From Patescibacteria group bacterium (GTDB taxonomy: Bacteria > Patescibacteriota > UBA1384 > XYA2-FULL-43-10 > 1-14-0-10-43-13), in contig JBAZNP010000001.1 in assembly GCA_041649155.1 (NCBI GenBank), forward strand, positions 739,183 through 798,787: 59,605 nucleotides of DNA, written 5' to 3'. The notes beneath the pieces are model-generated. The model saw only the letters and a program-made list of their open reading frames with translations. It searched no databases and had not been told where the DNA came from. Shown here piece by piece: positions 3,554-57,747 of this stretch; position 1 is the first letter of the stretch; each line of letters opens with the position of its first letter. Position numbers and translations under genes: made by a program.

Positions 3554-4467
3554 TTTTTCTTGTACTCAATTCTTTGGTGATAGATTGATCGCAGATTTTC
3601 TTTTAAGCTGCTACCAATTATGGCAAGCTCTTTGCTTGATAGGTTGCAGCTTTTGAACTGCTTTTCGTTTAAACGCTCGTCGATTGAGCTGTCGACAATA
3701 TTGTCGATTTGGTCCGATGTAAGATTGACTACTGATCTTGTCGCTGCTTCCACGCAATCAGACAACATTAAAATGGCGGACTCCTTAGTCTGAGGAACTG
3801 GTCCTGGGTATTTAAAATCAGTTCTTTTAATTCTTAGTCCTCTTTCTTTAGCTTGACCATAAAAATACAGAGCTTTTGTTGTACCATGATGTTCTGATAT
3901 TATGTCGATCACGTTTTCTGGCAAGTTGTACAATCTGGCTATATGAATGCCATTTTCAACATGAGAAATAATTGAATTAGCATTTTTTTTGATAGATTCA
4001 GCGTCATCAGCTGTCGGAATTTGTACTCCTGATTGGTTTTCAACGTAAAGAGTAGGGTTTTCCAGCTTACCAATGTCATGATAATAAGCAGCCGTCCGGA
4101 CTAGTAAGGAGTCAGCGCTAATGGCTTTCGCTGCTTTTTGTGCTAATGTCGACACATTTAAAGAATGATGATATGTGCCGGGAGCCTCGCTTGAGAGTCT
4201 CATTATCAGGGGATTGGAAAGATTCTCTATGCGGAGCATTTTACGCAATGTCATCATTGCATCAGAAAGCACCGGATTAAATACAGAAATGCCAATAGTT
4301 AAAATTACTCCAATTATTGCCGCTGAACACAAAAAAATCAATATTTTACCTGATATTGATGGTTCCAAGAGAGTAATTAAGTAGTCAGTAATTAAAAAAA
4401 CTACAAATGCTAATAGCGCTATTACTGCGGACAAATAGTACATGTATTTTGTAGATAATTTTCTCAT
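3550..4467 (-). CDS. Membrane-anchored HDIG-domain phosphohydrolase (short PgpH/YqfF-like)
   Basis: Two N-terminal hydrophobic segments; EAPGTYHHS, AYYHDIGK, EHHGT, DCVEAATRS. Confidence 0.85.
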   Translation of the reverse strand: MRKLSTKYMYYLSAVIALLAFVVFLITDYLITLLEPSISGKILIFLCSAAIIGVILTIGISVFNPVLSDAMMTLRKMLRIENLSNPLIMRLSSEAPGTYHHSLNVSTLAQKAAKAISADSLLVRTAAYYHDIGKLENPTLYVENQSGVQIPTADDAESIKKNANSIISHVENGIHIARLYNLPENVIDIISEHHGTTKALYFYGQAKERGLRIKRTDFKYPGPVPQTKESAILMLSDCVEAATRSVVNLTSDQIDNIVDSSIDERLNEKQFKSCNLSSKELAIIGSSLKENLRSIYHQRIEYKKK

Positions 4468-4476
4468 TTTTTATTT

Positions 4477-4920
4477 TTATTGCAGGATTTCTCTGACAAT
4501 TTTTGAGACCAAGCTACCATCCACGGAATTTCCGTGCTTTGCCATTACTGCGCCAATCAGCTTGCCCATTTGCGAAACATCAGATATACCAAGCTCATCT
4601 TTTGTAGCTAGAACAATATCTCTAATATCATCTTCGCTGAGTTGTTCCGGCAGATAAGAATTGATTATCAATAACTCAGATTCTTCTTTTTCTGCGGCCT
4701 CTAGCTTGTCAGCCTTTTTAAATTCTTCGATAGAATCTTTTCTTTGTTTGGCTTCATGCTTCAATACAGCCACAGCTTCGTCTTCGGATAGCTCTTTTTT
4801 TTTGCTGATTTCTTCGTTTTTTAGTGCACTTTTAACCAGCCTTAACACGGAAATTTTTAGTTCTTCCCTACTTTTATAAGCATCAATGAAATCACGTTCA
4901 ATCTGTTCTTTGAGAGTCAT
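4477..4920 (-). CDS. yqeY: GatB/YqeY domain protein
   Basis: LRLVKSALKN, KQRKDSIEEF, YLPEQLSED, MGKLIG; position after rpsU. Confidence 0.93.
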   Translation of the reverse strand: MTLKEQIERDFIDAYKSREELKISVLRLVKSALKNEEISKKKELSEDEAVAVLKHEAKQRKDSIEEFKKADKLEAAEKEESELLIINSYLPEQLSEDDIRDIVLATKDELGISDVSQMGKLIGAVMAKHGNSVDGSLVSKIVREILQ

Positions 4921-23588: not shown

Positions 23589-23721
23589 TTTTATTACAAG
23601 ATATAAATAGTAAATACCTCAATGCGTAAAAAAGGTGAAATACCGCCCCGATTCATCGGGGCAACATGCCCGATTTTAGGGCAGTGTCCAGGGCTTGCCC
23701 TGGGGTATGATACCCTTTATA
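23589..23721 (-). repeat. 133-bp structured element, family A copy 1
   Basis: Reverse complement matches 27711-27843 at both ends. Confidence 0.85.
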
Positions 23722-23813
23722 GCGGTTGCCCAAATCGTAACAAGATTGAAGCCAAAAATCAACAAGCATGCAGTGAGTTCTTATATTTTGGAGAATTTAT
23801 TTTATTTTAATAA

Positions 23814-26327
23814 TTAAGCTTTGGTTTTTGAGAGTTTCAAGGAGCCTTTTTCAATGGAGATTTTTAGAGTATCGCCTGATGAGAATTCTTCAGTTAATAT
23901 CCCCTCCGAAATTGGAGTTTCTATATAGTCGGAGATCACTTTCCTAATCGGTCTTGCTCCAAATTCCGGACTAAATCCTTTTTCAGCGATCCAATCCTTA
24001 ACCTCTTTTCTAACTGAGAGAGAAAATTTTAAAATTGAAAGTCTTTTCTTGAGATCGATTAGTTGAATTTCAACAATTTTTCTAATGCTTTCTTTTGAAA
24101 GTGGTTCAAAAACAATAATCTTGTCAATTCGGTTCAAAAACTCAGGTTTGAAGTGTTTCTTAATCGACTCCATAACATGATCTTTTAGTTTTTGATATTC
24201 GTATTCAGCATTTTTATTGTTAAAACCAATGGCAGCTTGTTTGTTTAAAATATCCGTACCAAGATTTGAAGTCATTATTATGATTGTATTTTTGAAATCA
24301 ACTTTCCTGCCTTTAGCATCCGTTAACTCCCCGTCTTCTAGTATCTGCAGTAAAATATTAAAAACTTCGGGATGAGCTTTTTCAATTTCGTCAAGTAAAA
24401 TTATTGAGAAAGGATTTTTTCTGACAGTTTCTGTTAATTTGCCACCCTCTTCAAAACCAATATAACCGGCGGGTGCGCCCACTAGTCGGGAGACGTTATG
24501 TTTTTCCATAAACTCTGACATGTCGATCTTAATGATTGAATTTTCATTTCCAAGCATCTCCTTCGCCAATGTTTTTGCAAGTTCGGATTTGCCTACTCCG
24601 GTAGGCCCCAGAAAGATGAATGAGCCGGTTGGTCTGTTAGGGTTGGAAATTCCAACCCTGGCTCGCTTGATTGCCTGAGCGATTGATTTGACGGCTTCGT
24701 CTTGGCCGATAATCCGTTTCATAATTCTCTTGTCTAAATCAAGATAACGTTTTTTCTCTTCTAACGTTAGACTGGAAACAGATATGCCTGTCCATTTGGA
24801 AATTAAGCTCGCAATATCTTCTATTCCGATTTCCTTTTTGGTTACCTTTTCACTCTTGGACTGGATCCTTTTCATTTCCTGTTCGATTATGACCTCTTTT
24901 TTTCGAAGCATGGTTGCTTCTTTATATTTTTCTATCATAATCAGGTCATCCTTTTGCTTTAAAATACTCCTTAACTCTTTTTTGAGTTTGTTAAGTAAAA
25001 CGGCATTTTCGGAGATCTTGGACGCGGCAGCTCCAGCTTCATCGATTAAATCAATTGCTTTATCTGGAAGGAAGCGGTCGTTTATATATCTTTTTGATAG
25101 CTTTACGGCAGCCTCAATCGCCTCACGGGTGTATTTTATTCCGTGATGACTTTCATATTTGCTTTTTATCCCTGCTAAAATTTTTATTGATTCAGGGATG
25201 CTGGGTTCGGAAACTTTTACTGGCTGAAACCGTCTTTCAAAGGCAGGATCTTTTTCAATATGTTTCTTATATTCATCAAAAGTGGTCGAGCCGATTGTCC
25301 GGAGTTCGCCTTTGGCCAACATTGGTTTAAGGAGATTTGCAGCATCAATCGATCCTTCGGTTGAGCCTGCACCAACAACAGTATGAATTTCGTCAATAAA
25401 CAAAATTACGTTGCCTTTTTTCTTGATTTCGTCAAGAATTTTTTTGACTCTGCTTTCAAATTGTCCGCGATACATTGTTCCGGCAATCAGTGCTCCCATA
25501 TCCAAGGACAATATTTCTTTATTCAGAAGGTTTGCTGTTACTCTACCGTCGATGATTTTTTTTGCCAATCCTTCAACAATTGATGTCTTCCCCACTCCGG
25601 GGTCTCCGACTAGAATCGGGTTGTTTTTAGTCCTTCTTGATAATATTTGAATAATTCGTTCGGTTTCAGCTTCTCTGCCAATTACGGGGTCAAGTTTATT
25701 TTCTGCTGCCAGTTTATTAATATTGGTTGTATAAAGTTCAAGCTGAGAAATTGTTTTTGCTTTAGACATGGTCTGACCGCCGCTCTGCATTGGCCCCATT
25801 GGTCCGAAAAAATCATTATCTCCCATTCCTATTTCATTCATGATATTTTCATTTTCCGGTGGAATATTTACTTGAGCAAAAGTTTCGTTTATGTTGCCAA
25901 AAATTGATTCGATTTGTTTGACGATGTTATCGGGACTAACGCCTATCCTTTTAATAATAATATATGAATTAAAAGATTCATCTGACAATAAAGCAATTAG
26001 AAGATGTTCGCAATCAACAACTGAATGATTGTGTTTAGAAGCGATCTTAACAGCTGCCTGAATTGATTTCTTGGACTCACCTGACAATCCAATCGGTTTT
26101 TTTGATATATTCTGTTTGCTAATTAAAGAACCAACCAATTGAATTTGGTCGGGTCCGATTTTAAAGCTTGAAAGTACTTCAAAAGCTAGATTGTTTTTAA
26201 TCATAGACAGAGCTAAAAGCTGGTGTTCTGTATTCATGGGAGTGTTTTGCTCTTTCGATATCCGCTCTGACATGATTAAAACTTTTTTCAGATTTTCACT
26301 AAATTTTTTAAAAATATCTTGGTTCAT
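23814..26327 (-). CDS. clpC: ClpC-type AAA+ protease ATPase subunit
   Basis: Clp-N repeats, GDPGVGKT, FIDEIH, UVR-like coil, GPTGVGKS, LLDEIEKAH, IGF loop. Confidence 0.95.
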   Translation of the reverse strand: MNQDIFKKFSENLKKVLIMSERISKEQNTPMNTEHQLLALSMIKNNLAFEVLSSFKIGPDQIQLVGSLISKQNISKKPIGLSGESKKSIQAAVKIASKHNHSVVDCEHLLIALLSDESFNSYIIIKRIGVSPDNIVKQIESIFGNINETFAQVNIPPENENIMNEIGMGDNDFFGPMGPMQSGGQTMSKAKTISQLELYTTNINKLAAENKLDPVIGREAETERIIQILSRRTKNNPILVGDPGVGKTSIVEGLAKKIIDGRVTANLLNKEILSLDMGALIAGTMYRGQFESRVKKILDEIKKKGNVILFIDEIHTVVGAGSTEGSIDAANLLKPMLAKGELRTIGSTTFDEYKKHIEKDPAFERRFQPVKVSEPSIPESIKILAGIKSKYESHHGIKYTREAIEAAVKLSKRYINDRFLPDKAIDLIDEAGAAASKISENAVLLNKLKKELRSILKQKDDLIMIEKYKEATMLRKKEVIIEQEMKRIQSKSEKVTKKEIGIEDIASLISKWTGISVSSLTLEEKKRYLDLDKRIMKRIIGQDEAVKSIAQAIKRARVGISNPNRPTGSFIFLGPTGVGKSELAKTLAKEMLGNENSIIKIDMSEFMEKHNVSRLVGAPAGYIGFEEGGKLTETVRKNPFSIILLDEIEKAHPEVFNILLQILEDGELTDAKGRKVDFKNTIIIMTSNLGTDILNKQAAIGFNNKNAEYEYQKLKDHVMESIKKHFKPEFLNRIDKIIVFEPLSKESIRKIVEIQLIDLKKRLSILKFSLSVRKEVKDWIAEKGFSPEFGARPIRKVISDYIETPISEGILTEEFSSGDTLKISIEKGSLKLSKTKA

Positions 26328-26500
26328 AAGTTTATATTATTATTTTTGTTGTTTAAATAAGTTAACGTATAATTATTATACTAAAAAATATAAAAAGCAA
26401 GATACAAAAAGTGAGCACTAATCAAATATCTAAACCAAAAATACTTAAATATTTAATTGAGTTATTAATAGGGCATGCAAGTTTCTGGTTTTAGCTAAGA

Positions 26501-27607
26501 TTATTCTTCGGAATTTTCAGGCTCTTCTGCAGGTTTTTCCTCTTTTTTCTTAGTTTCTTCTTCGTCAAGAACAACATCTATTCCCCAGCCAGTTAGTTTT
26601 GAGGCCAGACGAACATTCTGTCCGCCCTTCCCAATTGCTAAGGATAAGCTTTCTTGGTCTACAAAAACAGTAGCCTTATTGTCTTTTGACGATATGGAGA
26701 TTTTTTTTGTTTTCGCAGGAGAGAGTGCATTCATGATGAATTGTTCAACATCTTCGTCCCAAAGAACAATATCTATTTTTTCTTCACCGATTTCAGCCAA
26801 AACTGCCTGAACTCTAGTTCCGCGTTGTCCAACACAAGAACCAACCGGATCAATCTTGTCTTCAGTTGCGATGACGGCTAATTTCGTTCTGGATCCAGCT
26901 TCTCTGGCAATGCTTTTAATGTCTACTGTTCCAGCATTGATTTCCGGTACTTCGAGCTCAAAAAGACCGCGGATTAATTCTTTGTCGGATCTCGAGACAA
27001 TGATTTGAGGACCTCTAGTCGTCTCGGCTACTTCTTTAACGTAGACTTTGATCCTTTGTCCAATATAATATCTTTCTTCCCGAACCTGATCAGCAGGATA
27101 CATAATACCATTAGCTTTTCCAAGAGAAGCTATCACATTTTTACCTTCAAGTTGTTGTACAGTTGCATTAACAACCTGGTTTTCTTTATCTTTAAATTCT
27201 TTATAAAGTAGTTCTCTTTCAGCCTCTCTGATTCTTTGAATGATGACTTGTTTGGCGGTTTGTGCTGCAATTCTTCCAAATTCCTCTTTCTTTTCGAGTG
27301 GAATAGATACTTCATCGCCAACTTTAGCTTTTTTATTTAACTTTAAAGCCTGATCAAGTGTTAGTTCTTGTTCTTTTTCTTTAACTTCCTCTTCCGAGTC
27401 AACGACTACATAGACCCTAAACATATCAGCTTGTCCTGTTATGGGATCTATTTTTGCTTTCAATATTTGTTTAGGTTTTCCGTAATCTTTTCTATAAGCG
27501 GCAGCAAGAGCGGCTTCAACTGTCTCAATTACAACGTCCTTATTTAAGCCTTTATCTTCGCAGATTTCTTCGATTGCACTCATAAATGGGTTTGAATTTT
27601 GTGCCAT
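26501..27607 (-). CDS. nusA: Transcription termination factor NusA
   Basis: FGRIAAQTAKQVI, AREAGSRTK, GKGGQNVRLASKLTGW. Confidence 0.99.
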   Translation of the reverse strand: MAQNSNPFMSAIEEICEDKGLNKDVVIETVEAALAAAYRKDYGKPKQILKAKIDPITGQADMFRVYVVVDSEEEVKEKEQELTLDQALKLNKKAKVGDEVSIPLEKKEEFGRIAAQTAKQVIIQRIREAERELLYKEFKDKENQVVNATVQQLEGKNVIASLGKANGIMYPADQVREERYYIGQRIKVYVKEVAETTRGPQIIVSRSDKELIRGLFELEVPEINAGTVDIKSIAREAGSRTKLAVIATEDKIDPVGSCVGQRGTRVQAVLAEIGEEKIDIVLWDEDVEQFIMNALSPAKTKKISISSKDNKATVFVDQESLSLAIGKGGQNVRLASKLTGWGIDVVLDEEETKKKEEKPAEEPENSEE

Positions 27608-27620
27608 GTTTTCTCCCTTG

Positions 27621-27676
27621 CCCCGTTAAATCCGCGAAGCGGTAATTCTGCTACGGCAGAATGTATTTAACTGGGG
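27621..27676. repeat. Three-way-junction palindromic element before nusA RBS
   Basis: CCCCGTTAAAT/ATTTAACTGGGG closing CCGC-gaa-GCGG and TTCTGC-tacg-GCAGAA. Confidence 0.6.
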
Positions 27677-27710
27677 TTTGTTAATTTATTTTATTTCTTT
27701 AATTATATCA

Positions 27711-27843
27711 TATAAAGGGTATTATACCCCAGGGCAAGCCCTGGACTTTGTCCCGATTTATCGGGACAATTGCGCGGCAAGCCGCGAGGTATTTCACCTT
27801 TTTTACGCACCGAATTATTTACTATTTGTATCTTGTAATAAAA
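27711..27843 (+). repeat. 133-bp structured element, family A copy 2
   Basis: Inverted copy of 23589-23721. Confidence 0.85.
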
Positions 27844-29981: not shown

Positions 29982-32900
29982 TTAATTTGCTAATGGTAAC
30001 AATATTGAGATACTCGAACCTTTGCCTAATCTACTTGTAACTTGTACTTTGCCGCCTTGTTTTTCTATTAAGTTTTTTACAATAAACAGACCAAGCCCTG
30101 TGCCTCCTGCTTTAATACTTTCTGAATTTTGCACTCTATAGAATTTGTTAAAGATTGCAGCTTGATCTTTTTTGGGAATTCCAACTCCGGTATCTTCTAC
30201 TACTATTCCCCCAAGGTTTTTTAATCTCTCGTTCCTTAATATTATATCGCCGCTTAATGTGTATTTTATGGCATTATCTACAAGATTTGATAATGCTTGT
30301 TTTGTCTTATCGTAATCTCCAATAAGTTTAATATTTTTAGATGCGACAGCTATTTTTAAATTAATGTTTTTGTCTGCCGCCTTTTGTTCAAAGTCAGCAA
30401 TAACATCTTTCATTAAATTGGTTGAGCTGAATGGAATTTTATCAAATACTGTTTTGTTCTCCTCTATCCTAGCGGTTTTAAGTAGATCTTCCACAAGAAT
30501 GACTAATTTATCAGTTGCTTGGTAGACTTTGTCAAAATATAACTTTTGTCTCGGATTAATTTCTCCTGCATCTCCACTTAAAATCATTGAGAGGTAGCCT
30601 TTAATAGCTGTAATCGGAGTTCTAAGCTCGTGAGTAGTAGTGTATATAAATTCTTTATTTCGATCTTCCATGGTTTTCTCTTTCGAAATATCTCTTATTA
30701 TTGCAATCACATAATCAAAATCATCTTCTTTAAAAATAAATGAAAGTGTGATTCCCAACCATTGTTCTTGCTGGTCTGAATTAAAGCTTCTAACTTCACG
30801 ATAAACTGTTCTGGTTTTATTTTCTAAAATATCTTTTTTTATTTTTTTATATTTTAGGACTATATCTGTATTATTTCTTAAAAAAATATCAGATGATTCG
30901 AAACCGGTAATTAGCTCCATTGCCTTATTCCAAACCATTATTTTATCTTTTGAGTCAAATACAATAATTCCGTCGCCAGAGTTATCTATAATGTTTTTCA
31001 GCTGTTGTTCATCTTGTCTGATCTGTTTAAAAAGCTTAGCCGTATCCATTCTTGAGGCTATTCTTTCTGCAATAATACTAAGCCATTTTATATCTCTGCT
31101 ATTATATTTTTTTTCTTTATTGATTGCGTATAAAAATCCAATAGTTTCATTATTTAGTTTGATCGGAGTTAAGATTATTCTGGAAATATTATTTATATTA
31201 TCAAAGTTATTTTTTGCATCGTTACATATAAATTCATCTTTAAAATTCTTTCTTTCCATTATTTGTGCAATTAAACTCGGTATTTCGGAATTTTCGTTTT
31301 TAACCAAGCCGATTTTATCGTCTTTCGGATTTAAAAAATAAAGATCTGCTACTTTCGAATCTAATATGGTAGCGGTTTTCTTTAGTACATTGCTATAAAA
31401 ATTTGGAGAGCTTATAGAGAGCGAGGATATCCTAAACAATCCGGTTAACTGTTCAATTTGTTTTTTAACTGTTTCCTGTTTTTTTACTAATTTTGTTGTA
31501 TCAGAAAAACCTATAAGGACACTATTGCATCGATTATTTTTTTCAATTACAGGATTAAATTGACATTTAATTCTGTCTCCTGTTCTTTTTTTTGAAACGA
31601 ATTCCATGTTATATGTTTTCTTATTTTTAATAGACTTTTGAATCGTTATCTGCATATTTTTCGAATTTGCTTCATTTAATTCTGAGAGATAATGGTTAAT
31701 ACTTTTATTCTCTAAATCATTCTTTTTCAAAGGAAGTAATTTTATTGCTGCTTCGTTTGTGAATATAAGATTGAAATTTCTATCTACCATGATCAACCCA
31801 TCAGTTGTGGTCTCTAACACTTTTTCGAATGTTTCCCTTTCATTGTCTAGTTGTTGGTATAGTTTTTCATATTCCATTGCCTGAGCTATCCTGTTGGCGA
31901 CTATTGATGCTGTTTTAGTTTCGTCCTCAGAAAAAAAATGATTTTTTGATTTTGTCAGATTTAATACACCCCGTAATTTATTATTATAAATCACAGGTAT
32001 TGAGAGTAGCGATCTTGCTTTGTGATGCGAAAAGGGAATAAAAAGAGGGTCTTTTTCTGTATTTGGAATCGCTAGGATTGTTTTATTTTGTGCAACATAT
32101 CCAGCAGCCCCTGTTCCTATTTTTAAACTCAAGGGCTTGTGCTTAGGGTCGTCATTATCGCTGTAACTAAAAATTACTTTTAAACAATTACTTTTAGGCA
32201 CCATTAAACTAGCTCCTATGATATCCATGCCTATAAACATCTGCTTCAGCATCGTTTTGATTATGTTCGTATGATTTGACTCCGAACTTAAGGCTAAGGA
32301 TGTCTGGTAGCTTAAAACGTTATGTGCTTCTTGACGTCGTTCTTTGGTGATGTCCTTAACAACAAGGGTGGAACCACATATTTTACCATTGTTGATCAGC
32401 GGGTTTGCAATTATGTTAAATGATTGATTTTGGTTTTTAATAATATTCGAGATTGTATATTCTTCTGATATTGCTCGTGAAGAAATCTCCGACAGAGATT
32501 TTATGAATTTGTCATACTTCTTATTGTTAGCTCTTTTTAGAGTTGACAACATCTTTTCTGCGGTGTTGTTTGTAAAGGTGGGGTTATTCTTTTTGTCGAA
32601 TGTGATGATGGAAAATGGGATAGTATCTATAATAGAGCTTTCTGGCAGTCTGGTAGTTCTGTTAATATCGGCGTGGATTATTGGATTTTCATTTTTTTCA
32701 AAAAAATTAATTCTAGACAATATAATTTTTGCATTAGAGATTAAATCAACATCTTTTAATCCATCTTTTTTTTGCCAGACTAGGCTAGCTTGACTAGTTC
32801 CAATAAAATTAAAATCTTTAATTTTGCATCTAAAAATATAGCACTCGTGAAGTTCTGCTCCATATCGACAAGGATCAATGAGTGTTTGATGAAGAATTAG

Positions 32901-33233
32901 TTTCTTGCTTTTTAAATCCAATCCAACTTTGTCTACGAACAACCTGCTCAGTGCTTCTTCAACTGATTCTTCATAATGCAGATGTGTTGTCGGTATACCA
33001 AATCCATATGGAAATTTTTGTCTTTTAATTAGTAAAATATTATCTTTTTTTTCAATTATTGCACCAATCGTTACGTGTTTTATCAGCCCATTCTCTTTTG
33101 TTGAGTAATTTTGTCCATCGTTATCAATTACGCGCGTATTTTTTTCTCCACAGTTGGAACAATAATAAAATATGTGGTTTTTCTCCACAACAGTCGAAAC
33201 ATTTTCACTTAGGCAGTTGATGCATTGCTTCAT
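29982..33233 (-). CDS. Soluble sensor histidine kinase: Zn-ribbon, Nudix-like, PAS/GAF repeats, HisKA/HATPase
   Basis: CxxC/CxxC N-terminus; THELRTPITAIKG, NLVDNAIKYT, DTGVGIP, GGTGLGL; GAF-like GTGAAGYVAQ; no TM. Confidence 0.9.
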   Translation of the reverse strand: MKQCINCLSENVSTVVEKNHIFYYCSNCGEKNTRVIDNDGQNYSTKENGLIKHVTIGAIIEKKDNILLIKRQKFPYGFGIPTTHLHYEESVEEALSRLFVDKVGLDLKSKKLILHQTLIDPCRYGAELHECYIFRCKIKDFNFIGTSQASLVWQKKDGLKDVDLISNAKIILSRINFFEKNENPIIHADINRTTRLPESSIIDTIPFSIITFDKKNNPTFTNNTAEKMLSTLKRANNKKYDKFIKSLSEISSRAISEEYTISNIIKNQNQSFNIIANPLINNGKICGSTLVVKDITKERRQEAHNVLSYQTSLALSSESNHTNIIKTMLKQMFIGMDIIGASLMVPKSNCLKVIFSYSDNDDPKHKPLSLKIGTGAAGYVAQNKTILAIPNTEKDPLFIPFSHHKARSLLSIPVIYNNKLRGVLNLTKSKNHFFSEDETKTASIVANRIAQAMEYEKLYQQLDNERETFEKVLETTTDGLIMVDRNFNLIFTNEAAIKLLPLKKNDLENKSINHYLSELNEANSKNMQITIQKSIKNKKTYNMEFVSKKRTGDRIKCQFNPVIEKNNRCNSVLIGFSDTTKLVKKQETVKKQIEQLTGLFRISSLSISSPNFYSNVLKKTATILDSKVADLYFLNPKDDKIGLVKNENSEIPSLIAQIMERKNFKDEFICNDAKNNFDNINNISRIILTPIKLNNETIGFLYAINKEKKYNSRDIKWLSIIAERIASRMDTAKLFKQIRQDEQQLKNIIDNSGDGIIVFDSKDKIMVWNKAMELITGFESSDIFLRNNTDIVLKYKKIKKDILENKTRTVYREVRSFNSDQQEQWLGITLSFIFKEDDFDYVIAIIRDISKEKTMEDRNKEFIYTTTHELRTPITAIKGYLSMILSGDAGEINPRQKLYFDKVYQATDKLVILVEDLLKTARIEENKTVFDKIPFSSTNLMKDVIADFEQKAADKNINLKIAVASKNIKLIGDYDKTKQALSNLVDNAIKYTLSGDIILRNERLKNLGGIVVEDTGVGIPKKDQAAIFNKFYRVQNSESIKAGGTGLGLFIVKNLIEKQGGKVQVTSRLGKGSSISILLPLAN

Positions 33234-33333
33234 AATTATATTTAAGAAATTAAATTTGGGATGTTGGGGCGAAAGCAGTTAAACTCACGCCCCGTGTTGC
33301 TGACCAACCATTATTTTTTTCATGGCTTCCTAC

Positions 33334-34185
33334 CTATTCGTGCCCCATTACGAACATTCTGCCCAAACCGGCAAGTTTCTCCTTGGCGATACAATGATGT
33401 TTTTTTGCTTTGACGACTTCCTCAATCAAAGATGCGAGCTTGTGCATATCCTCTTTGGTTTCATTCTTTGCCTCATAGCAATTTTTGCTGGATTTTTTAA
33501 GTGGAGGAGAAAAAGAAACGGAATCCAATACTTTTAGAGATGCAATAACCCATTCATGATGTGATTTCGGACTATATCTTTCAATAAGCCTTTTAGCTCG
33601 TGTCCCTTTTTCACAGTTCAGCCGTATAATTGTTATTTCCGGGAAGATTTCAACAAAATCATCTTCCAGTTCGGTTGAAATCTCAAGTAGTAAAACTTGA
33701 TTCTGGTTAAGCTCTGAATGTTGTTTCAGGATTCCATTGACTAGATAGCGATTGATGAATTCGTCGGAACATGCCACCATTTCTTCAGCTTCAGGAATAA
33801 ACACTCCTAAATTTGCTAATCTCGTTTTTTTCATCCAATAGATCCACTCTGGACAAGGCTCTAAACAGATTCCGACGTTCATAGAGCAAAGTTGTGGCTC
33901 GTTGCAGTCAATGATATCCCAAACGGAAATACGTCTATAGGGCATTTTTCCGTTTTTTTCCAACTTGGTTGGGGGGCGGACAGAATCTTTGTCAACAAAG
34001 ACGAATCTTTCATTATTGCGATTTAGAAGGTGCGCTATTAGGCTTGATTTGCCGACTCCAGCAGGACCTGAGATCGCAATAACATTACTCCTTGTCGTTT
34101 TATCGTGAATACTCAAATCATTTCGGTCTGACCATCCACGTCTAATGTGTATCCTCCCATTGGGGGGATAGCATTTTGTGTGCAC
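33334..34185 (-). CDS. Divergent P-loop kinase, guanylate-kinase-like
   Basis: GPAGVGKS Walker A; SVRPPTKLEKNGKMPY resembles the GK substrate loop; GGAGG RBS, GTG start. Confidence 0.6.
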   Translation of the reverse strand: MHTKCYPPNGRIHIRRGWSDRNDLSIHDKTTRSNVIAISGPAGVGKSSLIAHLLNRNNERFVFVDKDSVRPPTKLEKNGKMPYRRISVWDIIDCNEPQLCSMNVGICLEPCPEWIYWMKKTRLANLGVFIPEAEEMVACSDEFINRYLVNGILKQHSELNQNQVLLLEISTELEDDFVEIFPEITIIRLNCEKGTRAKRLIERYSPKSHHEWVIASLKVLDSVSFSPPLKKSSKNCYEAKNETKEDMHKLASLIEEVVKAKKHHCIAKEKLAGLGRMFVMGHE

Positions 34186-34633: not shown

Positions 34634-35938
34634 ATGAACAAAAAGGATATTGAGAATTATCTCAAAGAGACATTATTATTAGCTAAAAAAAATAAAAATA
34701 AATATGAAAAGAAATTAAGAAAAATTATATACTTGCATCAAAATAAAATTCCTGCACTCGCAGCTATTTGTTTGTTAACAGGTGTTTTATTGGTGGCGGG
34801 TATAATAAAAAGTCCGGTTAGATCTTTAAGTGTGGCTAAATTAAACCAGTCGATAAATACTTCATTGTCTTCTGACGCTCCGGATTTAAATAATTTAAAT
34901 TTTAAAAATATCGAAAAATTCGAAGTTCCAAATGCAAAGGCAACAGTAATATACATACCTCAGCTGCATAAGGAGCCAACTTCAAATGCTTCCGATAAAA
35001 CGAACGATCAGGCAACGACAGTTCAGAAAGAGATTTCGGGCATGTTGAAAACATTGGTTGACGACAACCATGTCAAATATGTAATGGACGAAACCGATCT
35101 TTATGGGTCAATGCCTGCTGATAAGGTTGAAAAAATTAAAGCTGGTTTTTCGGAGATTGAAGGAATTAGGTCGGATATAAAAACGATTATCGAACATTAT
35201 TTGAAGGATGGCGGTTCTACTGAAACTGCGGATGCTGTTCAAAAAAGCGTGGACGAAAAGCTTGATGGTTATGAACGAAACATATATCTAACTGGTGGCG
35301 CGGCTGTGTTAGCAGCTCAAGATGATGATGCACATGTATATGGTTCACAAAATGCAGATACCATTAATGAAGCAAAGGTAGAATTACAAAACCTCGTTTA
35401 CATGGAAGCAAGAATAAAAGAGCTCGAAGCTCAAAATGGTTCGGGATCGATCGGAACAACATCGACTTCAAGCAGTAGCCAGTCATCGGCTGCAAGTATC
35501 TTGTCTGCGTTGGGAAGTAGTAGTAAAAGTAACGGAAGTTCTTTGCAACCTATTATAAATTTTGCGAAGAAAAATAACGATACAGAATTAATCGAGGAAA
35601 TTAGTAAGATTACTAGTGCCTCTAAAGCTTTTACATCTAGCAGAAGTTATGAAACAACTTCAGCCACATCTACAACGACGGCTCCGGTAAATGTTTATAA
35701 GAATGTTACTGATTTGGAAGGATTAAAGGAAGAGTATCAGACTGCCTATAATAAGTTCATGAAGTTAGCCAAAGACCAAAGAAGTCAAGAGGTCGCTGAT
35801 AACATTGATAAAATGATGGAAGAAAATGGCCAAAATACAAGCATCTTAGTGTTCGGTATGCAGCATAAGGATCAGCTAGTCACAGCTCTTAATAAGAAAA
35901 ATATTAACGTGATTGTAATTACTCCTGAGTCCGAATAG
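34634..35938 (+). CDS. Membrane-anchored protein, possible TraB/Tiki/ChaN-like fold
   Basis: TM near aa 40-58; PQLH, VMDE, QRS, FGMQH; Ser/Thr-rich insert; TTGACA-17-TAAGAT at 34543-34571. Confidence 0.7.
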   Translation: MNKKDIENYLKETLLLAKKNKNKYEKKLRKIIYLHQNKIPALAAICLLTGVLLVAGIIKSPVRSLSVAKLNQSINTSLSSDAPDLNNLNFKNIEKFEVPNAKATVIYIPQLHKEPTSNASDKTNDQATTVQKEISGMLKTLVDDNHVKYVMDETDLYGSMPADKVEKIKAGFSEIEGIRSDIKTIIEHYLKDGGSTETADAVQKSVDEKLDGYERNIYLTGGAAVLAAQDDDAHVYGSQNADTINEAKVELQNLVYMEARIKELEAQNGSGSIGTTSTSSSSQSSAASILSALGSSSKSNGSSLQPIINFAKKNNDTELIEEISKITSASKAFTSSRSYETTSATSTTTAPVNVYKNVTDLEGLKEEYQTAYNKFMKLAKDQRSQEVADNIDKMMEENGQNTSILVFGMQHKDQLVTALNKKNINVIVITPESE

Positions 35939-54043: not shown

Positions 54044-54863
54044 AACAAAAAAAATAAATATAACTCTCGCCGGAGAAGGCGGCCAAGGTATTCAGACAAT
54101 TGCCAAGATTTTAAGCGAAGCAGCGATTGCTTCCTGTCACGAAGTGGCCTACATGCCGGTTTTTGGAGTTGAGCAACGCGGAACTCCTTCTGTTGCTCAT
54201 ATTACCGTATCAGACAAACAACTACGTTATCCTAAATTTGATATCGCGGACTATGTGATAGTTTTGCAGTCAAGAGCAATAAAAGCAGTGGAGCAATACG
54301 TTTCTCCTAACACAAAGGTTATTTTTGATAGTTCAACCATATCAGCAAAAGATTTACCTAAAACTTCTGTACACATCCTTGGAATGCCGGCAACCAAACT
54401 TGCCCACGAGCAATTCAATCCAAAGGCATTTAATATAATAGTGCTTGGTGTGCTAACAAAAATATTAGATATTCCAGAAAAAGATATTTGGGAACTAGTG
54501 ATGAAAGTTCTTGGCAAGAAATTCAAAACTGATGAGATTAAAAATTCAAATAAAGAAGCTCTTTCATTTGGAAGAGAACTGATTTTGGAAAAAGATAACT
54601 TTTCTAAAGCAACTTATAAGACAAAACATAAGTCAATTGTTTTTAAAGGTTATGGTAAAACCGGCCAGATTTCCCCCACACGTTGCAAGGGTTGTGGGAT
54701 TTGTATTGTGAAATGCCCTGTTGGCGCCCTTTCATTCGGTGAAGATTTGGGTGTTTACGCCACTGCCATACCAAAAGTTGATCTGGAAAAATGTATTGCC
54801 TGTGGCAATTGCAGAAATTTTTGCCCGGACGGCGCAATTAATATTAACAAGGATAGTAAATAA
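54033..54863 (+). CDS. 2-oxoacid:ferredoxin oxidoreductase gamma subunit fused to 2x[4Fe-4S] delta domain
   Basis: AGEGGQG, FGVEQRGTPS; CKGCGICIVKCP and CIACGNCRNFCP. Confidence 0.93.
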   Translation: MPNKTKKINITLAGEGGQGIQTIAKILSEAAIASCHEVAYMPVFGVEQRGTPSVAHITVSDKQLRYPKFDIADYVIVLQSRAIKAVEQYVSPNTKVIFDSSTISAKDLPKTSVHILGMPATKLAHEQFNPKAFNIIVLGVLTKILDIPEKDIWELVMKVLGKKFKTDEIKNSNKEALSFGRELILEKDNFSKATYKTKHKSIVFKGYGKTGQISPTRCKGCGICIVKCPVGALSFGEDLGVYATAIPKVDLEKCIACGNCRNFCPDGAININKDSK

Positions 54864-54897
54864 TTTACTAACTAGAACATAACTACTCACTTACGCT

Positions 54898-55012
54898 GTC
54901 ATTTCGACTCCTCAGCTTTGTCTGGGGGTGGACCTGCCTGCCGGCAGGCAGGGAAATCTTAAAAATAGATTGAATTACTATTGGAAGATCCCTCCACATT
55001 GGTCGGGATGAC
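54898..55012. repeat. REP/MITE-like element with nested 20-bp palindrome
   Basis: GTCATTTCGAC...GTCGGGATGAC termini; CCTGCCTGCCGGCAGGCAGG at 54933-54952. Confidence 0.7.
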
Positions 55013-55237
55013 ACAAGGTCGAGTGAAATTACGCTAGAACTCCTTTGCAAAAGGGGGTAAAACAGACCCAATTGATCACATATCCTAAGTTGCTGTGAAC
55101 TATTATCGTGTTAGTATTTGTCCTCAAAATTATTAAAAATATCTCCATTCTTATATTAATATATAGCAGAACTGTCACAGAATGCTGTAAGTTCTTTTGG
55201 TAGCCTATAAACATCATTTGGAAGGAGGTGTTAAAAT

Positions 55238-55612
55238 ATGAAGACAATGAAACTTAAAGTCGGTATTGTAACTACCGTAATAGCCTTAATGGTAATCGCT
55301 TCTTTGGGTGCATCTAAAGCTGATGCTTATTCAAATAATGCAAAGAATTTGGCTGGACTTATTGCAACCACAAATGTTTTAGACGGCGGTTCAAGCGGAG
55401 CATTCACTAGCGGAACAGATGACCTAGCTGATTTGATTGTGCTTGGTGGTTTATTCCCAACTTCTACTAGTGCAAATCAGAATGCCAAAGATCTTGCTGG
55501 ATTGATTGCAGTTGACAGCGTAACAGGTGGTAGCTCTGGTGGATCATTCACTGATGGAACAACTGATCTTGGAGGATTGCTTGTGCTAAACAATCTGTTT
55601 TTAGATCCTTGA
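55238..55612 (+). CDS. Secreted protein with 2 copies of an unfamiliar ~47-aa repeat (paralog A)
   Basis: AAGGAGGTG RBS, signal peptide ending ADA, NAKxLAGLIA / DLxxLxVLxxLF repeats, ends LFLDP. Confidence 0.88.
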   Translation: MKTMKLKVGIVTTVIALMVIASLGASKADAYSNNAKNLAGLIATTNVLDGGSSGAFTSGTDDLADLIVLGGLFPTSTSANQNAKDLAGLIAVDSVTGGSSGGSFTDGTTDLGGLLVLNNLFLDP

Positions 55613-55638
55613 TAAATTAAATTAGAGTTTAATTTTCA

Positions 55639-55668
55639 GCAAAAACACGGTTTCGGCCGTGTTTTTGC
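55639..55668. terminator. Intrinsic terminator after paralog A
   Basis: GCAAAAACACGG / CCGTGTTTTTGC. Confidence 0.75.
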
Positions 55669-55700
55669 GTAGCCACTCACTGTATTAGAATTTTTATTTT

Positions 55701-55806
55701 GCCATCCCCGTGAAGACCTGCCTGCCAGTAGGCAGGCACGATAGTAAAATCTTAAAACTACTTGTCGAATGGGAGCGATGAGGCTCAGGCCTCAGAGTCG
55801 AATGAC
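55701..55806. repeat. Degenerate REP/MITE-like element
   Basis: GCCATCCCCGTGAAG...CCTGCCTGCCAGTAGGCAGG...GTCGAATGAC. Confidence 0.55.
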
Positions 55807-55967
55807 GGGAATGATAGTGAATGGTTATGTTTTTGCTACTTGGATATCTAAGCGCATTACTATTAAAAATAATATTATATCCAAGCCAGAATTATGGGAA
55901 AATATTCACAGAATATGGTTAATTATTTTAATAGCTTGAAAACATAATGAAAGGAGGTGCTAAGGAT

Positions 55968-56483
55968 ATGAAAACAATAAAATTGGGGGTTAGCTTATCC
56001 TTTGCGGCGATATCTGCAGTGATAGTTGCTGTTGCTTTTTTTGGCGTTAAATATGCTGATGCTCGATTATCTTCTAACGCAAAGAATTTAGCTAGTCTTA
56101 TTGCAGTTGACAATATAACAGGAAGCTCTAATGGGTCTCTTACTAATAATAATACGAACGATCTTAGCGAGTTAATTGTACTTGGTGGCTTATTCCCTAC
56201 CTCTACTAATCCAACTCAAAATGCTAGAGATCTTGCTGGCCTGATTGCAGTAAATAATGTGACTGGTGGCTCTAGCGGTGCATTCGCTAGCAACCAAACT
56301 GATCTTGGCTCACTTATTGTATTAAACGGATTATTTGGCGGTACAGGATCATCTGCTTCGACTAATGCTAAAAACTTAGCTGGATTGATCGCAGTTAGTA
56401 ACATAACTGGTGGAGATATGTCTGGCGGAAATGACAACCTTGGGGAATTGCTTGTACTAAACGGTCTGTTTTTAGACCCTTGA
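55968..56483 (+). CDS. Secreted protein with 3 copies of the same repeat (paralog B; start 55968)
   Basis: AAAGGAGGTG RBS, signal peptide ending ADA, three repeats, ends LFLDP. Confidence 0.88.
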   Translation: MKTIKLGVSLSFAAISAVIVAVAFFGVKYADARLSSNAKNLASLIAVDNITGSSNGSLTNNNTNDLSELIVLGGLFPTSTNPTQNARDLAGLIAVNNVTGGSSGAFASNQTDLGSLIVLNGLFGGTGSSASTNAKNLAGLIAVSNITGGDMSGGNDNLGELLVLNGLFLDP

Positions 56484-56493
56484 GAAATTAGAA

Positions 56494-57747
56494 TTATTCC
56501 TTCCAATATTTCTTATTCTTTAAGTTCTCTGGCAAGTGAGACTTATTTGAGTACATTTCATATCCTTTGCCAAAGCCGAAATCCCTCATCATTTTTGTTG
56601 GAGCATTTCTAATATCTAGAGGAATTGGCTCTAATCTTTTATTAACCACATCATCTTTTGCTGCAGCATAGGCGTCATCGACAGCTCGTGATTTTGGCGC
56701 CTTGGCAAGGTAAATAACTAACTCGGCAACGATGACATTCGATTCCGGCATTCCAACAAAGTGAACTGCCTGCTGTGCGGATGTAGCCAATATCAATGCT
56801 TGTGGATCAGCCATACCAATATCTTCCGCAGCAAAACGAACCAGACGCCTGATTATATACAAAGGATCTTCTCCGGCTTCGAGCATTCTAGCCATGTAGT
56901 GTAACCCTGCATCAACGTCAGATGCTCGCAGCGACTTATGCAAAGCAGAAATGGCGTCATAGTGACCATCAGCTCCCTTGTCATAACGGATGAATTTCTG
57001 CTGGATCGATTCTTCTGCCAGTTTTTCATCAATTACAATCTCATTTTTTACTACTTTTGCCGAAATAATTGCCAATTCGAGTGCATTGTAAGCATCTCTG
57101 GCATCTCCTTCGCTTAGTTCCGCAATTCGTTTTGCTGATTTTGCTGTAATAGATATCTTAATGATTTTCTCTTTGAATATCTTGGGGAAGTATTTTGAAG
57201 GATCTTTGTTTATCTTCTTGATCGCTTGATTTATTAATTTTACAACATCGTTTACTCCGAGTTCTCTAAAGTGAAATACGCGAGCTCTTGATAAGAGCGG
57301 AGCGTTAATCTCAAATGATGGATTTTCCGTTGTTGCTCCGAGCAAGACTATAGTGCCATTCTCTACATGAGGTAAAAAAGCATCCTGCTGGGACTTATTA
57401 AATCTGTGAATTTCGTCGACAAATAATATTGTCAATTTTTGATATAGCTCGAGATTGTTTCTGGCCTGTTCAATAATTTTGCGTGCGTCCCCTACTCCGC
57501 CAGTTACAGCGGAAAAGAAAACGAAATTTGATTTTGTCTTCTCGGCTATTATTTTTGCCAGTGTGGTTTTGCCACAACCGGGCGGCCCCCAGAATATCAT
57601 GGGGAATATTCGATCCGATTCGATAATTCTTCGTAAGAGCTTGTCTTTTCCCAATATGTGTTCCTGTCCGACAAAATCCGATAATTTCTCAGGACGAAGT
57701 CTCTCGGCTAGAGGGTGTTGAATTGTATTTGAAAATAAATTATCCAT
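56494..57747 (-). CDS. rarA: Replication-associated recombination protein A (RarA/MgsA; start 57747)
   Basis: PLAERLRP, WGPPGCGKTT, FVDEIHRFNKSQQDAFLP, TTENPSF, HKSLRASD, EDIGMADP. Confidence 0.97.
   Translation of the reverse strand: MDNLFSNTIQHPLAERLRPEKLSDFVGQEHILGKDKLLRRIIESDRIFPMIFWGPPGCGKTTLAKIIAEKTKSNFVFFSAVTGGVGDARKIIEQARNNLELYQKLTILFVDEIHRFNKSQQDAFLPHVENGTIVLLGATTENPSFEINAPLLSRARVFHFRELGVNDVVKLINQAIKKINKDPSKYFPKIFKEKIIKISITAKSAKRIAELSEGDARDAYNALELAIISAKVVKNEIVIDEKLAEESIQQKFIRYDKGADGHYDAISALHKSLRASDVDAGLHYMARMLEAGEDPLYIIRRLVRFAAEDIGMADPQALILATSAQQAVHFVGMPESNVIVAELVIYLAKAPKSRAVDDAYAAAKDDVVNKRLEPIPLDIRNAPTKMMRDFGFGKGYEMYSNKSHLPENLKNKKYWKE

Follow-up and report, generated by a model that had tools for sequence, protein, structure and literature searches.

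A stretch of 59,605 nucleotides from an uncultured Patescibacteria group bacterium of the Saccharibacteria (hereafter the window; contig JBAZNP010000001.1 of assembly GCA_041649155.1, positions 739,183 to 798,787) contains two tandem genes for small proteins built of a predicted signal peptide and hydrophobic repeats, and the question is what such proteins are for. Gene A (P0001, 55238..55612, plus strand) encodes 124 amino acids and gene B (P0002, 55968..56483, plus strand) 171; two kinds of unit, referred to as A and B units, alternate in them as A-B-A-B and A-B-A-B-A-B, respectively, and both proteins end with LFLDP. They could be substrates of an enzyme-like partner, they could assemble into a surface coat, they could attack the membranes of other cells, or they could serve as calcium-binding adaptors. 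The best-supported reading is that the repeat family and a TraB-like ecto-enzyme form one extracellular module. To the more specific proposal that the repeat proteins are substrates of this partner, in peptide release or shutdown or in the maturation of a coat, we give about an even chance; the peptidase activity of the partner, the substrate relation and the role of the products are what we only infer.

The partner gene (P0123) is located at 34634..35938 of the window (plus strand; tblastn E 3e-23) and encodes a protein of 434 amino acids with one transmembrane helix. We considered its co-occurrence with the repeat family in two samples, 162 genomes of the class and 251 genomes representing the phylum. 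In the class, the partner is present in five genomes (G000, which is the genome of the window, G007, G021, G159 and G161), and the repeat family in six, which are the same five and G013 (Fisher p = 7e-9). In the phylum sample both are found in exactly the same three genomes (G000, G159 and G345; 3 of 251, p = 4e-7). The assembly of G013 is 89% complete, and its contig starts at the point syntenic with approximately 38.7 kb of the window, just beyond the place of the partner; hence, the apparent lack of the partner in this genome may be an assembly gap. We found no genome in either sample that has one of the two genes and is demonstrably without the other.

The genes are also often linked on the chromosome. 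In five loci of more distant CPR lineages, whose repeat proteins belong to the wider B-unit set described below (L029, L032, L033, L034 and G345), a repeat gene lies near a gene encoding a 380-424-residue protein with an N-terminal membrane anchor, the two being directly convergent in the first four and separated by one small gene in G345. The partners of these four loci are mutually homologous (E 1e-32 to 1e-90), and the partner of G345 matches their profile with E 1.2e-98; an extracytoplasmic function (ECF) sigma factor is encoded alongside in four of the five. In G021 (L035) and G159 (L036) the partner and the repeat gene are divergent neighbors. The partner of the window adjoins a P-loop gene and a Zn-ribbon/Nudix histidine kinase (29982-34185), and G021 has both of these neighbors as well, with a repeat gene lying between them and the partner; the corresponding gap in the window holds no repeat gene. 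In G159, genes for a receiver-only response regulator and a membrane histidine kinase come after the repeat gene. Such proximity to kinase genes may reflect a signalling link.

The ECF-type sigma factors of L029, L032, L033 and L059 (G345), all from members of the Candidate Phyla Radiation (CPR) other than Saccharibacteria, are mutually homologous (E 1e-7 to 1e-50). In G345, the partner has the sigma gene directly upstream, and the gene of the LysM-repeat protein is flanked by one for an HtrA-like protease. No homolog of this module-linked type of ECF sigma factor is encoded in the genome of the window.

The sequence of the partner gives some indication of its role. The N-terminus is rich in lysine and arginine (12 K+R vs 4 D+E in 38 residues) and is followed by the transmembrane helix at residues 39-58, approximately, so that the predicted topology is N-in, with the large domain outside the cell. 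Nine homologs share the invariant positions P-Q-x-H (H112; IPQxH in P0123), E153, R383-x-x-E386 and G408-x-x-H411. The sole recurring Pfam match is PF01963 (TraB_PrgY_gumN), seen in six of the nine partners with the best E 3e-4 and always over the last 60-70 profile positions, and the sole recurring NCBIfam match is TIGR00261 (traB), seen in three of the nine (best E 0.006). When whole genomes (G000, G021 and G161) were scanned with PF01963, the partner gene was the only candidate. We also compared the nine-member partner alignment with an alignment of eight TraB/GumN proteins, comprising YbaP of Escherichia coli, six plasmid-borne proteins (five of them annotated as TraB/GumN) and one CPR protein above the PF01963 cut-off. 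In hhalign, the probability of homology was 65.7% (E 5.8e-5) over the C-terminal 57 columns only, that is, over the end with the R-N...G-x-x-H motif. In the TraB/GumN alignment, G-x-I-H, E, R-N-x-x-W and V-G-x-x-H-x-x-G are nearly invariant; both groups share the order H...E...RN...GxxH, with different spacing, and the N-terminal correspondence was drawn by eye.

The repeat proteins, in turn, have the features expected of an exported chain of similar units. By eye, the signal peptide comprises approximately residues 1-30 in protein A (MKTMKLK-VGIVTTVIALMVIASLG-ASKADA, with YSNN after the cut) and 1-31 in protein B (MKTIKL-GVSLSFAAISAVIVAVAFFG-VKYADA, then RLSS); both proteins thus start with MKT.KL. 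A positive n-region, a hydrophobic h-region and A-x-A at positions -3/-1, as in substrates of Sec and signal peptidase I, are seen in A, in B and throughout the family, and both proteins are predicted to be exported via Sec with a cut after ADA. From 147 A units and 204 B units of the family we derived the consensus N-A-[KRQ]-[ND]-L-A-G-L-I-A-V-D-N-I-T-G-G for the A unit and [ST]-[DN]-L-G-D-L-I-V-L-N-G-L-F-G-G for the B unit. The two share the pattern [DN]-L-x-x-L-I-x-x-[DN]-x-[IL]-x-G-G and are visibly homologous halves of one repeat, and they make an alternation of hydrophobic cores of 11-13 residues. The loops from A to B units measure 9-42 residues (mean 16), are rich in G, S, T, D and N and frequently have one F or L in the middle, and the linkers from B to A units measure 6-30 residues (mean 11.5). 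The mature proteins have an isoelectric point of about 4.05, contain no Cys, His or Trp, and consist to 46-52% of G+S+N+T and to 38% of L+I+V+A+F. The preliminary description of this locus had presented A and B as secreted, Cys-free proteins made of two or three repeats, and the signal peptides, the two or three A-loop-B units and the composition all agree with it.

If the two components work together, the following scheme would apply. Protein A, protein B and the third paralog of this genome would be exported by Sec, probably in abundance, as strings of alternating hydrophobic cores; the membrane-tethered TraB/PrgY/GumN-like partner, its domain facing outward, would act on them outside the cell and would cut, trim or destroy them in or beside the flexible linkers. 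The outcome could be that short hydrophobic peptides are released or limited, as a pheromone-like or envelope signal, or, alternatively, that a hydrophobic wall coat is matured. The constancy of the cores beside variable linkers, the free copy number and phase of units, the relatives anchored in the wall beside a membrane-bound enzyme and the sigma and two-component neighbors all suit a multi-copy precursor or processed substrate. A multi-core precursor cut in its linkers had been mentioned only as an alternative in the preliminary description; it has gained ground through the strict co-occurrence with a putative ecto-enzyme of the TraB/PrgY/Tiki type.

No described system combines these parts, the nearest being PrgY/TraB and Tiki-Wnt, which are related in the enzyme only, and even that is uncertain. 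PrgY has been described as a peptidase located in the membrane, with a presumed role in the extracellular degradation of cCF10 (LVTLVFV), a hydrophobic heptapeptide pheromone; plasmids responding to cAD1 (LFSLVLAG) and cPD1 carry its homolog TraB (PMC7117660). The likeness to these proteins of Enterococcus faecalis (PrgY of pCF10, TraB of pAD1 and pPD1) lies in a putative common superfamily, to which the recurring HMM matches of the partner point, and in the cores LAGLIAV and DLIVLNGLF, which share the very hydrophobic character of the pheromones; on the other hand, our partner scores below every curated cut-off and aligns in the C-terminal motif only, there is no plasmid or conjugation context, and the hosts are CPR bacteria rather than Firmicutes. 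Enterococcal pheromones are cut by Eep from lipoprotein signal peptides, in whose C-terminal part they lie, whereas here there is neither a Cys nor a lipobox, and the motifs occur in several copies in the mature part of Sec-exported proteins. Tiki cleaves the N-termini of Wnt proteins (PMC12329661). The Tiki1/2-Wnt pair likewise consists of a membrane-tethered ecto-enzyme, a metalloprotease proposed to belong to the same superfamily, and a secreted partner, in that case a hydrophobic signalling protein, an arrangement that in our case is predicted; the substrates, however, are not homologous, and that system is metazoan, ours bacterial. In its layout the repeat family is also similar to precursors of the alpha-factor type. 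The fungal alpha-factor prepro-protein contains tandem pheromone copies, and here, too, conserved short cores, variable in number and separated by spacers, come after a signal peptide, with copy number and order varying among paralogs; unlike it, our family has two alternating core types, no conserved dibasic or other cleavage motif in the spacers and a putative processing enzyme of another class.

Several observations weigh against the proposal that the partner processes the repeat proteins. The genomes with the module represent only about three to six independent lineages, and the Fisher p-values given above overstate their independence; moreover, co-occurrence indicates a functional link, and not the direction or chemistry of this link. 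In the genome of the window the partner is not adjacent to A and B, being 20 kb away, and the third paralog is about 560 kb from it. The gathering threshold of PF01963 (26.8 bits) is reached neither by P0123 (16.3 bits) nor by its best homolog (about 21.5 bits); hhalign gives no significant alignment of the N-terminal half of the partner with the TraB alignment and nothing for the partner against E. coli YbaP alone, and a profile search of Protein Data Bank (PDB) sequences with the partner yields nothing relevant. As all scores are below the curated cut-offs, we call the partner probably a very distant relative, and not a member, of the TraB/PrgY/GumN (Tiki) group. On the substrate side, no conserved cleavage-site residues are seen in the linkers beyond the core borders. 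The core consensus contains a helix-capping pattern ([STDN] as the N-cap, D/E at N3, Asn-Gly or Asp-Asn as the C-cap, then a hydrophobic residue), which would suit a folded helical repeat equally well as a peptide product. The capping motifs, the conserved hydrophobic residue in the loop and the existence of paralogs of complementary phase are as compatible with a folded or assembling repeat as with a processed one.

The furthest-reaching variant of the processing proposal would be an undescribed CPR system for extracellular peptide signalling or envelope sensing, in which polyproteins with four to six cores are cut or silenced by the TraB/PrgY/Tiki-like ecto-peptidase, with a readout through neighboring ECF sigma and anti-sigma factors or two-component systems. 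We consider it rather unlikely. If true, it would be a multi-copy, Sec-dependent counterpart of the pheromone systems of Gram-positive bacteria in organisms that depend on attachment to other cells.

All of the above presupposes that A and B are genes. Compared with the orthologous pair on the related contig L007, the ratio of nonsynonymous to synonymous substitution rates (dN/dS) is 0.26 for gene A and 0.17 for gene B, and thus they are genuine coding genes under purifying selection and not chance reading frames. By region, the cores of the repeats have a ratio of about 0.10 and the linkers one of 0.29-0.53, and indels occur in the linkers as well. Proteins A and B are 57% identical (E 2e-36) and hence paralogs, and their internal repeats self-align at E 4e-27 and 3e-10; the LFLDP ends are encoded by ctgtttttagatccttga and ctgtttttagacccttga. 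This bears out the description of the locus as two paralogs of 124 and 171 residues with a common end. A near-ideal ribosome-binding site had also been reported for both genes, and indeed a perfect Shine-Dalgarno sequence AAGGAGGTG is found 7 nt ahead of the ATG of gene A (55222..55230, plus strand) and 8 nt ahead of that of gene B (55951..55959, plus strand); a longer frame of gene B, starting at 55947, merely translates this site. The whole 990-kb genome contains 11 copies of the AAGGAGGTG 9-mer, and all three paralogs of the family have one, while a Shine-Dalgarno match of at least 8 nt precedes about 1% of crude open reading frames (ORFs) in this genome; GGAGGTG is present in 15 of the 15 family genes inspected. 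Two further perfect copies in this genome precede an ORF for a 65-residue protein similar to KGG-repeat stress proteins (G000:C1:600377, minus strand) and one for a 123-residue STAS/anti-sigma-antagonist-like protein (C1:535001, minus strand). A hairpin 3' of gene A (55639..55668, plus strand; 13-bp stem, arms with an A-run and a U-run, -19.8 kcal/mol, z = -6.5) resembles an intrinsic terminator and might function bidirectionally. Between the end of gene B and the convergent rarA there are 10 nt.

The family to which A and B belong is tiny and restricted to the CPR. Scans of the repeat proteins against Pfam and NCBIfam (E up to 10) and PHROGs gave no meaningful match, weak ones to Ash, Stx1B and PNTB (E 0.03 or worse) being taken as chance, and the profile search of PDB sequences gave none at E up to 10; hence, the initial impression that no known family is recognizable holds, and no match to a characterized one has appeared. 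Among 5.8 billion proteins, 46 homologs were retrieved by single-sequence search and 69 by profile search; their sources are metagenomes or CPR bacteria, and none has a Pfam domain. A set of 1.8 billion proteins yielded another 44 representatives. Every named genome with a family member is a Saccharibacteria or other Patescibacteria genome. A 1341-residue repeat protein among the representatives (P0066) was set aside as an unrelated low-complexity match. Three members carry wrong automatic names: 'predicted nicotinamide N-methylase' (P0024), 'succinate dehydrogenase flavoprotein subunit' (P0050) and 'ThiH' (P0081).

Two architectures can be distinguished. Proteins of the AB phase have two or three units and end with LF(L)DP, whereas those of the BA phase (B-A-B-A) end with ...LIAVDN... 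The third paralog of this genome (P0041, G000:C1:211670-212029), adjoining rpoD and dnaG, is of the latter type and lacks LFLDP; its relative P0033 is found in the same rpoD/dnaG context. The C-termini of yet other members are LFDP, LFNN or LFDV. It had been suggested that LFLDP could be a sorting or assembly signal; as a general sorting signal it is not supported, the motif being no more than the terminus of the final B unit in one of the subfamilies. The profile search yielded the anticipated homologs and variation in repeat number, and not the anticipated conservation of LFLDP. In L039 (G161:C39), a 112-residue family member with linkers rich in Tyr and Gly (GGYAA..., YGGY...; 4054-4392, minus strand) is encoded beside a 98-residue secreted protein of PVAPLGGYIATVPPVGG repeats (4494-4790, minus strand), and the two may represent another branch of the family. 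Finally, comparison of profiles relates the family to a larger group of CPR proteins (99.1% probability, E 5e-19), which have B-like units only, of the form LG[DE]L[IF][IV]LDxLF, and are often fused to LysM; the window, in comparison, represents a Saccharibacteria variant in which two core types alternate. The peptidoglycan-binding LysM domain occurs in 22 of 39 such B-like relatives, some of them from bacteria named Portnoybacteria or Nealsonbacteria, which places the repeats at the cell wall; the three paralogs of the genome studied here have neither LysM nor another anchor domain.

The structure of the repeats is less clear than their export. The preliminary description regarded them as two-helix repeats, of which the repeat units stand, whereas the helices are weakly backed, so that the term is at most plausible. 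AlphaFold2 with 66 sequences places helices on all four cores of mature protein A at a predicted local distance difference test score (pLDDT) of 51 and a predicted template modelling score of 0.22; for protein B, with 12 sequences, the pLDDT is 44, and the models of both contain helices, no strands and no beta-solenoid. A Foldseek search of the AlphaFold2 model against the PDB gave 0 matches, as expected with a poor model. The hydrophobic moment of the cores is 0.07-0.11 at 100 degrees, that is, they are not amphipathic as helices, and peaks near 120 degrees for the A core and at 75-80 degrees for the B core. The hydrophobic cores comprise only 7-8 residues, and the highest Kyte-Doolittle mean over 19 residues is about 1.0. 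The earlier idea of membrane insertion is thus not supported, as the cores are too short to span a membrane, and the reading of the proteins as amphipathic helices or membrane pores is weakened by the low moments and the short cores.

The same data bear on the possibility that the proteins are precursors of secreted antimicrobial or host-directed membrane-active peptides, similar to bacteriocins, which the partner would process or against which it would protect the producer, as PrgY shields donors. Saccharibacteria are epibionts and must act on the envelope of their host; several small secreted paralogs with hydrophobic cores, a patchy, accessory distribution and a partner that resembles a self-protection or shutdown protein would be consistent with such a role. 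However, the mature proteins are anionic, with an isoelectric point of about 4, and have no cationic amphipathic face; no immunity gene, C39-ABC exporter or double-glycine leader is present at the loci read; and relatives anchored by LysM speak against a diffusible toxin. Class IIb two-peptide bacteriocins, which are cationic and have all three of these attributes, differ from our Sec-type proteins accordingly in each respect. The neighbors at the 13 loci read are genes for 2-oxoacid:ferredoxin oxidoreductase (OFOR), rarA, iPGM, rpoD/dnaG, ABC exporters, sigma factors and the TraB-like gene; enzymes that modify ribosomally synthesized peptides (radical SAM, YcaO, LanM and the like) are absent from them, and all family members have Sec-type signal peptides. 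We therefore regard an antimicrobial role as quite improbable.

The loops between the cores raise a different possibility, namely that the units are calcium-binding helix-loop-helix motifs of the EF-hand or dockerin kind and dock the protein on another surface protein. Loops of the form D-x-S-x-D-G-x-F-S-x-x-D indeed occur between the cores in a few homologs (P0022, P0019), and the proteins are acidic. An EF-hand or dockerin loop has 12 residues, of which residues 1, 3, 5 and 12 supply the ligands and residue 6 is Gly, a pattern that only a few homologs fit, whereas the loops of the family vary from 9 to 42 residues and in A and B are mostly S, N, T and G with few acidic residues. There is no match to an EF-hand or dockerin Pfam family even at E = 10, and no cohesin-like partner was found. 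We rejected this reading on the variability of loop length; its probability is minimal.

As regards the tandem arrangement itself, the site between the OFOR genes and rarA harbors one family gene in L008 and L010, two in the window and in L007, and three in L031 (one of the AB phase and two of the BA phase), and the tandem pair is seen only in the window and in the close relative L007. In the preliminary description the pair was likened to a subunit and its nucleator, as in CsgA/CsgB; with a gene number varying from one to three at the syntenic site, this interpretation is unsupported. Given the third paralog of the BABA phase without LFLDP, the family is not characterized by a two-gene layout, and no more by an LFLDP end. 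Curli and Fap proteins are related to the repeat proteins in form only. CsgA/CsgB and FapB/FapC, too, are small secreted proteins with imperfect repeats of approximately 20-45 residues that contain many G, S, N and Q, and with more than one paralog per genome; the differences are that our proteins match no such Pfam or NCBIfam family at E up to 10, are modelled as helices at a pLDDT of 44-51 rather than as a beta-solenoid, and have no export genes of the CsgEFG or FapF type near their loci. At the Saccharibacteria loci L008 (6970-7527), L010 (7045-7581) and L031 (1026-1616), all on the minus strand, a membrane-anchored protein of about 180-196 residues is encoded divergently from the repeat genes. 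The outer domain of the L010 protein is just at the threshold of Pfam RskA_C, the C-terminal domain of anti-sigma-K factors (29.5 vs 29.4 bits). We rejected this neighbor as an obligatory partner, as it is absent from the genome of the window.

The remaining alternative is that the proteins form a self-assembling hydrophobic coat or matrix on the cell surface, in which capped helices or strands pack between molecules, anchored by LysM in other CPR bacteria and free here, with the partner being only a factor of maturation or turnover or acting on something else. The perfect Shine-Dalgarno sites and the terminator 3' of gene A could be signs of abundance; the composition is that of stickers and spacers, with an acidic isoelectric point; repeat number and phase are tolerated (ABAB, ABABAB, BABA), as in open-ended arrays; LysM fusions occur among relatives; several paralogs of differing phase coexist in a genome, also in tandem arrays; and the lack of a stable monomer fold in AlphaFold2 would suit folding upon assembly. 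The array would then be displayed on peptidoglycan as in the LysM-anchored wall proteins of Gram-positive bacteria, with LysM among the repeats of the distant members mentioned above and, in contrast, none in the three paralogs of this genome. On the other hand, the proteins resemble no curli, Fap, chaplin or hydrophobin family, the models contain no beta-solenoid, the tandem pair is lineage-specific, and a coat alone would not account for the strict association with sigma or two-component genes and an enzyme-like partner. Such a coat, with the partner in a secondary role, has an appreciable probability, although a lower one than the substrate reading.

The regions upstream of A and B are related as well. 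The duplication that gave rise to the pair took along approximately 130 nt of upstream sequence, and a region of this length upstream of LFLDP-type genes is conserved among paralogs and genomes (L007, L010, L012 and L013). Upstream of gene A it spans 55105..55221 (plus strand), with the boxes TTTGTCCTCAAAA, TATTAAAAATA and CACAGAAT, and is retained at orthologous loci elsewhere; the paralogous region of gene B spans 55835..55950 (plus strand) and has the boxes TATTAAAAATA and CACAGAAT. Both regions presumably comprise a promoter and a leader, possibly structured. Searching for a regulon by the shared upstream boxes TTTGTCCTCAAAA and TGTCACAGAATG yielded none, these boxes being unique in the genome to the A/B locus. 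A copy of an element similar to repetitive extragenic palindromes or miniature inverted-repeat transposable elements (REP/MITE) lies upstream of gene A (54895..55016, strand not assigned), with the palindrome CCTGCCTGCCGGCAGGCAGG at 54933-54952, and the intergenic stretch separating A from B has a degenerate copy (55717-55737). The palindrome has the conserved flanks GTCATTTCGACTCC...GGGATGACA; the element occurs at about 35-40 more sites in this genome, and hence we rejected the GC-rich hairpin common to both upstream regions as a specific regulator. The element may be of the same family as the 133-bp repeats at 23589-27843. An Rfam scan of 54700-56700 gave no genuine match.

CPR bacteria, or Patescibacteria, make up a large share of bacterial diversity, live attached to other cells, and have surface proteins most of which are of no known function. 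In this context, the repeat family together with the one outward-facing enzyme-like protein to which it is tied is a compact, testable module that merits a name and a Pfam entry. If the partner cuts the repeats, they would be the first substrate assigned to a chromosomal TraB/GumN-like protein of bacteria, as distinct from those of enterococcal plasmids, and would offer a first way into the study of peptide signalling or of the maturation of surface coats in the CPR; if, vice versa, the repeat proteins assemble, they would represent a new kind of hydrophobic surface polymer.

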